Shown here: one piece after another, positions 21,001 through 24,000 of the stretch
Position numbering within the stretch: the stretch's first letter is position 1
How the letters are laid out: each line of letters begins with the position of its first letter
Source of the DNA: Planctomycetota bacterium
GTDB taxonomy: Bacteria; Planctomycetota; GCA-002687715; DRQF01
DNA length: 53,074 nt
Direction of reading: 5' to 3'
Assembly (NCBI GenBank): GCA_027001995.1
Contig: JALTLO010000099.1
Span: 742-53,815 of the forward strand
Made by a program: the position numbers

Positions 21001-24000
21001 CACCTCAGCTCCTGGCAGCACTTTCCTCGCCATGGTCAAAGGAAGCGGGCAAATTGCCGTCCTCTTGCAGACGCCTACAGGCTCTCAAGTTGTGCTCAGA
21101 ACAACAGGAGGGTTGATCTCATTTCCTGGACCCAGCGGGATCTTGAGCGGGGGGATCCGCTTGTTAAACGACGGTAGCATTTTGGTGATCACCACCCATG
21201 TCTCCACCGGCCTCACTGAGCTTTGGGCTCGAAATCCACAATCGGGAGTTTGGGCCTTGGCCTCGTCGATGAATCAGTCGGCGGCCAGCGCCGTTTTCTT
21301 GCGTTAGTCTGCCGCCCGGTCCTCAACAAGACCAACCGGTTGGTCTCCATCGCGTTATGGGTTATCCCATAGCGCCATGCTCAAGCCACCCGCCACAAGT
21401 TTCTACGGTCGAAATAGCTACCGCAAGCAACTCTGGGCCGAGATTTTGGTGGCCCCTGGTGCCGAAACTGCGCTCTTGGGCATCTTTCTGCTGAGCCGGA
21501 TCTTCGAACCCAGCAGACTCGACATCACTCTGCTCTTTGCTCTGAATCATCTGTCGTTCTTGTTGGCCCCGTGGATCACCGATCGCATTCGTTTATGGCC
21601 GGCGGCCAAAGTCTGCAACTTGGTCCTCCTCCTCAGCGTCGTACCCCTATTCTGCGCCGGATTGTTTCGTGGATTCTGGGGCTTAGGCCCACTCCTGGTA
21701 ATCGCCAACATCGCCTTTGTGGCTATCATGGTTCCTTTGCGCAATCGGATCTTGCGTGCCAACTATGACAACACCGAACGGGGAGCCGTTTATGGGCGCT
21801 CCAAATCCATCGCCACGGGTTTGTTCTTTGGGGTCATTCTAGCTGGGGCGTATCGCCTCACCGATCATCCTGCCGACATCTATTGGATGCTTCCCATCTT
21901 TGGCCTCACTTCCCTTATCGGGGGCCTCCTATTTCGCCGCTTGAGGGTACGCAAGGAGAGGCTTTCTTTAGCCATAGAAGCTCAAAGACCGCGCAATAGC
22001 AGTAAGAAAATTTATGGAGAGCTCTTCCAGCTCTACCGAGAGCACAAGCGATTCCGCAATTTCGAAATTGCCTTCATGATTTACGGGTTGGGGTTCATGC
22101 TCACCATCACCCAAGAAATCCCAGCGATTGCCAGAGAAACGGACATCCGCCCCGTGGGCATCGTCCTCGGCATTCACGGTTTAACACCTTTCATGAAGAT
22201 GCTCTTCATGACCTTCTTTGGCCGGCTCATGGATCGAGCAGGAGTTGCTAGAACTGCGGCGCTTTCCTTTCTTCTGTTGGCGGCTTATCCCCTGGCTGTT
22301 TGGGCCGCTGTCAGCGCTTCAAGCATTGCGATCTGGTTTATGGCCCGTTGCCTCTTCGGCATGGCCATGGCTGGTGTTGATGTTTGCTGGTCTCTCGGAC
22401 CTGTCATGTTTGGTGGAGCGGAAAAAGCAGCCCGTTACAGTGCGGCCCACATTTTCGCTGTTGGGATCCGAGCGGCGATCGTTCCGGTGCTGGGTTACTT
22501 CATCCACCAGCACATCGGCAGCTATACCTATGCCCTGGCGGCAAGCGTTCTTGTCTTTGCTGCTGGGTACATGCTAAGGCAGCAATCCAGAGCAACGAGC
22601 GTTATTGCTTCCGAACCTCAATGACAGCACTGCCTACAACTTCGTTATCCAAGTCTGTCCACGAGATGATGGCTCGTTTCCCGTCACTGGCCAAAGTCGG
22701 AAAGCCACTCCTCCTAGAATCGACGACATCAGCCACCTTGATCGCTTCATCGACTTTGCCGTCTTGAGTGATCAAGCACGCTTTGAGAGCAAGCTTGTCG
22801 TTTTCGAGAACGTCAAACCACGCCACAACAGCGCTGCCGTCCTCCAAGCAAGTTCCAGCCAACCTACCAATATTCGTGCCTTGGTCGATCACGATGGGCT
22901 CAGAAAAAGAGACTCCCTGGTCTTGAGACCGAGCAAATTTGATGACCGGCTGATGATTTTCGTCTTGGGTAAACCAAAGGACCGCTAACTGCGATCCCCG
23001 CGCCATGAGCACGGGACCGTTAACCGGTCAGCCAGGCATCTTCCAGTTGTCTGGATAGATGATTCTTGGCTTGCTCCACTTTTCACCATCGAAACGACTT
23101 AAAGAGATGTCTCTGATCTCACCGTCTTTTCGATCGCGATAAACAAGCACCGGAGTTCCCCCCACCAAGGCTGCGGAAGTTGAGCAGCATTCACAGGTAC
23201 GATCGTCAATGCGCACCTCGTCTTCCATTCGTCCTTTGGCGTTAAACCGGACGCTCCACAGCTCCATAAAACCCGTTGTTGCATGAGCCCGCGAATCCAA
23301 CCACGCGGCCCGATAAGTTCCAGCACCTTCAGGCAGGATAGAAACGAAACCGTGTTCACTGCTCTCAATCTCGGAATGAAGCCAAAACGGTTTACTCCAA
23401 TTCGCCCCACCATCGGAAGAAACCGCAGCGCGCACGCTATAACCCATGCCTTTGTCATTCTCCACCAACCAATGAGCCGCCATGTTATTTGAAACGCCCC
23501 CGACAACGGACGGAAAGTCCGCCCAGTTGAGCATCAAGTTATCACCTTCAGCCACAGTGACAGGAGTTGTCCACTTGTCGTCTTCCAAGAAGGCAAGTTT
23601 GAAGATAGCCCCTCTATCGCCGACTTCCTCCACCCAACTCATGTGTACCCGGCCATTCGGACCTACACCCACCCTTGACAAATGGCTCTTGGGCCCCGCG
23701 ATCTTGGCCAAGGGTGAAACCGACAAAAACACAGTTTGAGGCCCATCTTCTGGAGGTGAATCCTGCTTTTCCGAGCACCCATTCAAGAAGAAGAGGCACA
23801 CAAGCAAAACAAGATTCGTCGTTGGATTAAGTTGGATTGTTTGCATAGGCCGACTGTAGAGGTTCTCATGACCAAAGCAAGTAGTAGCATAACTTCAACT
23901 CATGCGATTGATGGCAGCCGAGTTCCTGGAAACGCTTCCGCAGGGTAACAAAAGTCGTGGTTTCCATTTTCGTCGTTGGAGGTAGGCACTCTGGCCGTTT

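Follow-up and report, generated by a model that had tools for sequence, protein, structure and literature searches.

An exported beta-propeller protein of planctomycetes with a very probable selenocysteine and a possible part in copper handling

The window analysed here is a stretch of 53,074 nucleotides from a Planctomycetota bacterium (contig JALTLO010000099.1). Its minus strand carries a gene that forms a single frame of 414 codons followed by TAA, and the sole internal stop is a TGA at codon 273, flanked by NWKMPG and PVNGP (Table 1). Gene calling under table 11 yields two ORFs of 272 and 136 aa from this gene, and the entry in the protein collection is the 272-aa piece. The survey's finding, which prompted this analysis, had treated two gene calls as one frame interrupted by the TGA; the frame, the position of the TGA and the split into 272 and 136 aa were all reproduced. 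It had also described the two closest homologues as gene calls that stop before the TGA, and both indeed end at PG. The split-gene annotation is hereby corrected. The gene stands alone, with an MFS gene convergent at its 3' end and an FG-GAP gene divergent upstream. No sigma-70 promoter-like site was found at the gene, and the terminator signal there showed no excess over shuffles.

Table 1. Features of the propeller gene, in window coordinates
Feature	Position	Strand	Basis
Whole gene: 414-aa exported seven-bladed beta-propeller, TGA read through	22602..23846	-	Frame, AlphaFold model, fold searches
Signal peptide ending in lipobox-like LNG-C24	23775..23846	-	Sequence; helix 8-21 in model
C218-E-C220-C221 motif, in the loop between blades 3 and 4	23184..23195	-	Conservation; loop position from DSSP of model
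In-frame TGA, codon 273, inferred selenocysteine, in the loop between blades 4 and 5	23028..23030	-	Cys column of homologues
Nearer hairpin, +16 to +34, loop UCAUG	22997..23015	-	Folding, comparison with TGA forms
Candidate SECIS: 9-bp stem, apical loop AGUUA, starting 37 nt after UGA	22977..22999	-	Consensus, -12.3 kcal/mol, z -3.5

Relatives of the gene were compared at codon 273. Within the class, 10 of 23 genomes possess the gene, always with TGA at this codon. A sample of the phylum comprising 401 genomes gave 52 matches at 1e-20 and 42 at 1e-50 or better; TGA occurs in 15 of these 42, five of them outside the class, and the alignment of the column was checked for those five as well as for 18 Cys forms. 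The named genome collection gave 597 relatives; in the best 80 the codon is TGC or TGT 78 times and TGA once, in a Planctomycetaceae MAG, and the remaining one was unparsed. The two named genomes placed in the phylum are planctomycetes. By the column check the TGA of the relatives is the same codon, and the total comes to 16 genomes (10 of the class, 5 others of the phylum and the one planctomycete MAG). A first metagenome scan with a single protein returned 73 pattern matches, no relative among them. Another scan gave 44 matches, of which 24 are family members with TGA in the same column; its pattern demanded both the TGA and the PVNGP motif, and the count carries no information on TGA frequency.

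The same column is otherwise occupied by cysteine, as the survey had proposed: Cys is found at position 273 in 265 of 268 homologous proteins, and all 268 have CxCC. No Sec form occurred in the 72 gene carriers among 301 Acidobacteriota genomes (a tally that includes one unpublished genome, G558, on which no other result rests) or in the 13 carriers among 401 Pseudomonadota genomes. Three apparent Sec forms outside Planctomycetota (G489, G424 and G764) were rejected, since their flagged stops lie off-column and column 273 is Cys; the examined carriers of these two phyla therefore include no Sec form. In the tree, the branches of TGA forms span 0.5 to 1.1 changes per site and three Cys/Sec changes are required; the change from Cys to Sec may have had a single origin.

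Coding continues past the TGA. In 36 of 40 TGA loci, 131 to 146 open codons follow it, and the other four loci reach the contig end. Downstream dN/dS is 0.06-0.28, similar to that upstream (10 of 11 pairs gave a value). The residues PVNGP directly after the TGA are conserved, and each of their five codons shows synonymous variation; in the metagenome rows this motif is the search pattern itself. TGA is the sole stop codon one base from TGC and TGT, so that its constant use at this position is a weak argument alone.

To the survey's description we added a scoring against a SECIS consensus, which was taken from PMC13188914 as coded in this analysis and is not bSECISearch output. The hairpin with the AGUUA loop passes, its loop lying at the 37-nt limit of the consensus model. 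The energy of -32.5 kcal/mol given in the survey was reproduced for the fold of the first 80 nt. A consensus hairpin was found in 12 of 16 TGA forms versus 24 of 96 Cys forms (24 of 88 when GC-matched), and about 3.4 of 16 TGA forms would be expected to have one after synonymous recoding, although these counts treat kin as independent, which relatives are not. The four TGA forms that fail do so at the cut of -7.5 kcal/mol. Fifteen of the 24 metagenome TGA forms pass; among 678 TGA codons that are ordinary stops in the present genome, only 24 do. At +38, 15 of 33 distinct TGA forms have the motif CGCAG.T.GC, which is absent from all 95 Cys forms compared. Most TGA forms without this motif have a G-loop hairpin closer to the codon. 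The nearer hairpin of the present gene lies in the register that carries a G-loop in other TGA lineages; neither of its own first two loop positions is a G, and it was rejected as the SECIS. When the AGUUA hairpin was aligned in 17 rows chosen by the motif, 93.6% of cells paired; in the same rows two pairs change on both sides (8 of 500 shuffles), which is modest covariation support. GUU or GGU loops also follow the UGA in selenoprotein genes of known families in this genome, including those for a Trx7/PDZ protein (over the cut-off), a VPGUxxT protein and two AhpD-like proteins. In Rfam, no SECIS family matches the hairpin region, and the one snoRNA match is a chance one.

The genome contains selA, selB, selC and selD, each above its cut-off. 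One contig carries selA, selD and the tRNA-Sec gene, and another selB; selD itself contains a TGA. In the other TGA genomes the test of the machinery was for selA only, and selA is present in 16 of 16 TGA genomes. It was also found in 28 of 28 tested planctomycete genomes without the TGA, and in 34 of 34 planctomycete genomes with or without it; selA presence does not discriminate and was dropped as a criterion. The reading of the TGA as selenocysteine, made in the survey, is strengthened by the shared column in 16 genomes, the selected downstream frame, the complete set of sel genes and a SECIS-like hairpin peculiar to the TGA forms. We infer with high confidence that UGA273 encodes selenocysteine.

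New selenoprotein families appear regularly, so that another one, from little-studied planctomycetes and with a fold unnamed in the current catalogue, would alone be of moderate interest. The family is apparently unlisted, in agreement with the survey: Table 1 of PMC13188914 (119 selenoprotein families, a 2026 catalogue) has no entry for it, and no NCBIfam 20.0 model matches the Sec form (0 families at E<=1) or three Cys forms. Term searches likewise gave no sialidase, BNR or propeller entry in deep-Sep (main text and four supplementary files), in the SelCysML main text or in one, possibly truncated, supplementary file of BSepDB. Literature searches found no paper on the family. Haft & Tolstoy 2025 and Deng 2026 stood outside this comparison, and the unvalidated candidates of Deng et al. 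2026 could include it.

The AlphaFold model of the protein (pLDDT 92.4, pTM 0.88) is, judging by its strand pattern, a propeller of seven four-stranded blades. The top structural matches by VIA-align are CylK (Z 31.6), a rhamnose-glucuronate lyase (29.2), a glycoside hydrolase (29.1) and PLL-type lectins; these best matches (Z 28-32), which we take to be seven-bladed proteins, are 8-13% identical to the query. The CxCC motif is invariant in 111 aligned sequences and is also present in a distant proteobacterial subfamily that is 27% identical over 186 aa. In the model, the loop that leads into the first strand of blade 4 holds C218-C221, and the corresponding loop of blade 5 holds U273; they would therefore lie on the same face of the propeller, and the four Cys/Sec residues may come close together in one centre. 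When 40 sequences of the family were compared with 13 of the distant subfamily, the residues common to both were F167, W182, D184, R186, C218, C220, C221, R237, R245, D246, W268, C273, P274, G277, P278 and W291, every one of them located in blades 3-5; four scaffold residues are shared as well. The Cys cluster lies among the invariant Arg and Asp residues D184, R186, R237, R245 and D246.

The survey had described a lipoprotein family with the lipobox Cys in 90% of members. Export holds, and general lipidation does not: a lipobox was detected by regular expression in 153 of 268 homologues, C24 is not among the columns conserved at >=90%, and many TGA forms have ordinary signal peptides. All forms look exported, and only some are lipoproteins.

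With 2,381 clusters at 50% identity (E<=1e-30) the family is large, and the genes around its Cys forms offer functional hints. Fusion to an AhpC-TSA/Redoxin domain was seen in 6 of 19 long homologues scanned, with CxxC intact in all six, and a gene of this type is a direct neighbour in 9 of 80 Cys loci (8 by Pfam, 1 by BLAST cluster). In the distant subfamily, 12 of 13 genomes have a gene for a CxxC protein next to the propeller gene (with a Pfam thioredoxin-fold match in 6), and the 13th has one for a DsbD_2 membrane protein.

Copper genes form the second theme. A multicopper oxidase occurs in 10 of 80 Cys loci, for which a rough baseline is the single one of the present genome, corresponding to 0.2% of 10-kb windows. 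Any copper-type gene was found in 21 of the 80 and none in 59, many of the copper-positive loci being from related Blastocatellia. Among 171 matching plasmid records, five roseobacter loci were viewed, and each is part of, or adjacent to, a copper/heavy-metal cluster with cueR, CopA, CopCD or an oxidase. In the 13 genomes of the distant subfamily, a TonB receptor lies upstream in 11, and DUF2946 was found in 5, PCuAC in 4 and YcnI in 1. The receptors are not of the OprC type. Apparent fusions to a TonB receptor in two loci are not claimed, since the long upstream frames begin with sequence unlike a receptor. No tie to the propeller gene was found for a Bradyrhizobium copper-starvation operon. 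According to PMC9426467, DUF2946/CruR is the copper-responsive leader of copper-uptake operons, whose expression falls when copper is abundant; a BNR or sialidase gene is unnamed in that text and in three supplementary files, Fig. 7 aside.

Neighbourhoods of the TGA forms look different. No thioredoxin match was found nearby in any of 14 TGA loci scanned, and a metal-type RND system lies downstream in one of them, from the same genus. A MauG/MbnH-type di-haem gene is located downstream in three TGA genomes. That TGA forms mostly stand without thioredoxin or copper neighbours speaks against a copper role, as do the isolated position of the present gene, the 59 Cys loci that have no copper gene, the receptors of a type other than OprC and the low identity that links the distant subfamily to the family.

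The survey had read the four residues as a redox or metal centre and the proteins as oxidoreductases. The thioredoxin fusions and neighbours and the copper gene clusters lend the redox or metal centre independent support, and they do so from the Cys forms; the propeller may be an oxidoreductase, or else a thiol-gated copper chaperone. In the mechanism that we propose, SelB, guided by the AGUUA hairpin, would insert Sec at UGA273, and the four thiol/selenol groups would make up an extracytoplasmic centre that cycles between oxidised and reduced states. This Cys3/Sec centre would be kept reduced by a TlpA-type CxxC thioredoxin, a direction of electron flow suggested by the gene context; PMC7558416 describes TlpA as reducing Cu-binding cysteines before metallation. 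The reduced centre might then bind Cu(I), or reduce and release chelated copper held in the Arg pocket, copper being the putative ligand or substrate. From here copper could pass to PCuAC where the gene lies in an uptake operon, or to oxidase and efflux systems where it lies in a resistance cluster. The reactive position of the centre would be residue 273, which is why Sec can replace Cys there. We lean slightly towards an exported Cys3/Sec centre that is kept reduced by thioredoxin and used in copper handling. The explanation as a whole, an exported 414-aa selenoprotein with SECIS-guided Sec, a redox-cycled Cys3/Sec centre and a part in copper handling, seems to us on balance the probable one.

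If this can be extended, which we suggest tentatively, the thousands of proteins with CxCC...CPxxGP now named 'exo-alpha-sialidase' or 'sialidase family protein' would be an unrecognised copper-handling component of the envelope that was switched to Sec in Planctomycetes. The seven-bladed propeller would carry a four-thiol centre supplied by a thioredoxin of its own; this centre would reductively unload copper delivered through TonB receptors, or buffer Cu(I) for oxidase and efflux systems, and Planctomycetes would have switched its reactive Cys to selenocysteine. In this very large, mislabelled family the Sec position points to the residue that is likely to be reactive, and the thioredoxin partner together with three separate copper contexts provides a directly testable function for it.

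The main rival to a copper centre accepts the selenoprotein and makes it a general, thiol-dependent reductase or peroxidase of the envelope, which copper clusters would recruit for the repair of oxidation damage and which would bind no copper. Thioredoxin fusions and neighbours suit such an enzyme. An MsrA- or peroxiredoxin-like cycle acting on an anionic small molecule or on oxidised proteins would fit the invariant Arg/Asp pocket beside the Cys cluster, the lack of copper neighbours in the TGA forms also speaks for it, and PMC13188914 considers a redox role probable for most uncharacterised selenoproteins. However, the family also occurs within copper-uptake operons that have DUF2946 at their head and PCuAC after the propeller gene; a repair enzyme is less expected there, since according to PMC9426467 the expression of such operons falls when copper is abundant. 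We regard the general reductase as rather unlikely.

An improbable alternative is that the selenoprotein holds a metal (Zn, Ni, Co or Fe-S) in a stable thiolate site, or acts as a hydrolase or lyase that binds a sugar acid in its Arg pocket and has structural Cys residues. The polysaccharide lyase and glycoside hydrolase among the top folds, the three invariant Arg and the DUF4198 genes directly upstream in 4 of 80 Cys loci would agree with it, but these enzymes have the fold alone in common with the propeller, and a structural disulfide leaves both the thioredoxin partner and the long-branch Sec substitution unexplained.

Very little speaks for the TGA being a true stop, either in a pseudogene or between two polypeptides with a GTG restart. 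Databases hold the 272-aa form, and in this genome a GTG lies 6 codons past the TGA; this GTG is not conserved in relatives, whereas PVNGP, which precedes any restart, is conserved as protein. The second piece would be without a signal peptide and comprise three blades only. Neither a frameshift nor a second stop was found in the 40 TGA loci, and purifying selection and the TGA-specific hairpin also argue against this very improbable reading.

The public name refers to GH33 exo-alpha-sialidases, which are six-bladed propellers with an [FY]RIP motif and an Arg triad with a Tyr/Glu nucleophile pair. The propeller family shares with them and with Pfam BNR_2 the general fold and Asp-boxes (at least one in 231 of 268 homologues, a feature not specific to sialidases). 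The match to BNR_2 (PF13088) is marginal, 32.2 bits against a cut-off of 31.4, and is the origin of the name; the ESM Atlas, queried with a Cys homologue, returned only the automatic names 'sialidase/BNR'. Sialidases among the Foldseek matches have TM-scores of 0.32-0.51 compared with 0.57-0.59 for seven-bladed proteins, and a profile search of solved structures gave four weak sialidase matches (E 0.006-0.008) that cover the Asp-box stretch only. Three Arg are invariant, and no Tyr is common to both subfamilies. The survey's view that these are not sialidases is upheld by the seven-blade fold and by the [FY]RIP motif, found in 0 of 268 homologues; unlike GH33 enzymes, the family also has an invariant Cys4 centre and a copper and thioredoxin context. 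That the protein is a true GH33 sialidase, as public annotations state, is hardly credible, and 'sialidase'-labelled CxCC propeller genes should not be counted as sialidases.

Another seven-bladed protein, methanethiol oxidase MtoX / SELENBP1, is copper-dependent, is found with MauG-like genes and is not known to be a UGA-encoded selenoprotein. The blade number and the MauG/MbnH-type gene downstream in three TGA genomes recall it, but the propeller has no Pfam match to the MtoX family, and MtoX is absent from the fold matches listed.

Like the bacterial selenoproteins of PMC13188914 (119 families), the propeller gene has an in-frame UGA opposite a conserved Cys, a hairpin just downstream, selABCD in the genome, and Cys homologues that far outnumber the Sec forms. 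In contrast to the propeller family, no entry there is named BNR, sialidase-like or propeller, and none has CxCC about 50 residues before GUPVNGP. Among the catalogues compared, this may be the first beta-propeller selenoprotein.

The distant subfamily lies in operons of the CruR (DUF2946)-led kind described in PMC9426467, where DUF2946, a TonB receptor, the propeller, a thioredoxin, PCuAC and YcnI are found; the receptors differ in not being of the OprC type. The closest functional analogy is the TlpA-ScoI/CoxB-PCuAC relay (PMC7558416). A Sco-type thioredoxin fold with CxxxC is absent from the propeller protein in both the model and the fold search, and the two are alike in function alone: two Cys on a thioredoxin fold characterise Sco, whereas the propeller protein has four thiol/selenol groups, and its family also occurs in copper-resistance clusters. 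What the two systems would have in common is a CxxC thioredoxin that reduces Cu-binding thiols outside the cytoplasm, with PCuAC alongside.

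Two reading frames encoding FG-GAP repeat proteins with an in-frame TGA were found elsewhere in the genome that carries the propeller selenoprotein gene (Table). The first, a lipoprotein frame of 996 codons (L147), combines FG-GAP repeats and an ASPIC/UnbV domain with a CxxC thioredoxin domain at its C-terminus; its TGA lies in the context DT-U-SVYW and is followed by a GUU hairpin (a SECIS-like stem with GUU in the apical loop) of -12 kcal/mol. It is possibly another propeller-type selenoprotein absent from the lists. The second frame (L148) has its TGA within NNW-U-C and also a GUU hairpin, and the NCBIfam search assigned it to no family; we regard it as a candidate unlisted selenoprotein.

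With regard to the Cys-containing homologs of the propeller selenoprotein, a gene for DUF4198, a domain with a putative nickel/cobalt link, is located immediately upstream at 4 of the 80 loci (L039, L080, L090 and L095). Single cases of propellers fused to penicillin amidase, TPR, metallo-beta-lactamase-fold and ankyrin domains (proteins P0169, P0190, P0194 and P0229) were also observed, and these fusions may be gene-call artefacts. As for the TGA-containing forms, a MauG/MbnH-type di-haem gene is located 3' of the gene in three genomes of a single genus (L205, L208 and L215). In two of these, a diverging gene upstream encodes a Vps10/BNR protein, a type also present at 8 of the 80 Cys loci. 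In the window, the 3' ends of the selenoprotein and MFS genes overlap by 23 nt (22602-22624).

Features discussed in the text
Feature	Location	Strand	Remark
FG-GAP lipoprotein frame (L147)	G000:C49:25262-28249	+	sequence, domain content
Exported FG-GAP repeat protein (L148)	G000:C105:3371-4462	-	sequence
TGA candidate L140	G000:C44		YAP-U-PPC
TGA candidate L144	G000:C88		FY-U-GSC
TGA candidate L145	G000:C155		GLA-U-QKT
TGA candidate L151	G000:C177		GGC-U-GGG
MFS gene	window 21377-22624	+	3' end overlaps that of the selenoprotein gene
625-aa protein, weak terpene-cyclase-like match	window 12259-14136	+	large, poorly annotated
735-aa exported protein, no match in Pfam search	window 19100-21307	+	large, poorly annotated
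DUF418/HGSNAT membrane protein with long inserts	window 31257-33080	+	large, poorly annotated

Four additional in-frame TGA candidates (Table) matched no NCBIfam family, and one of them, L145, shows a weak likeness to HMA. Three other candidates (L149, L150 and L152) appear to be chance or antisense frames. The same genome encodes many selenoproteins of known type (L136-L139, L141-L143 and L146). Among these are UxxC proteins (TlpA and thioredoxin), Trx7/PDZ, a pair of AhpD-like proteins and a VPGUxxT protein whose gene contains two TGA codons in frame.
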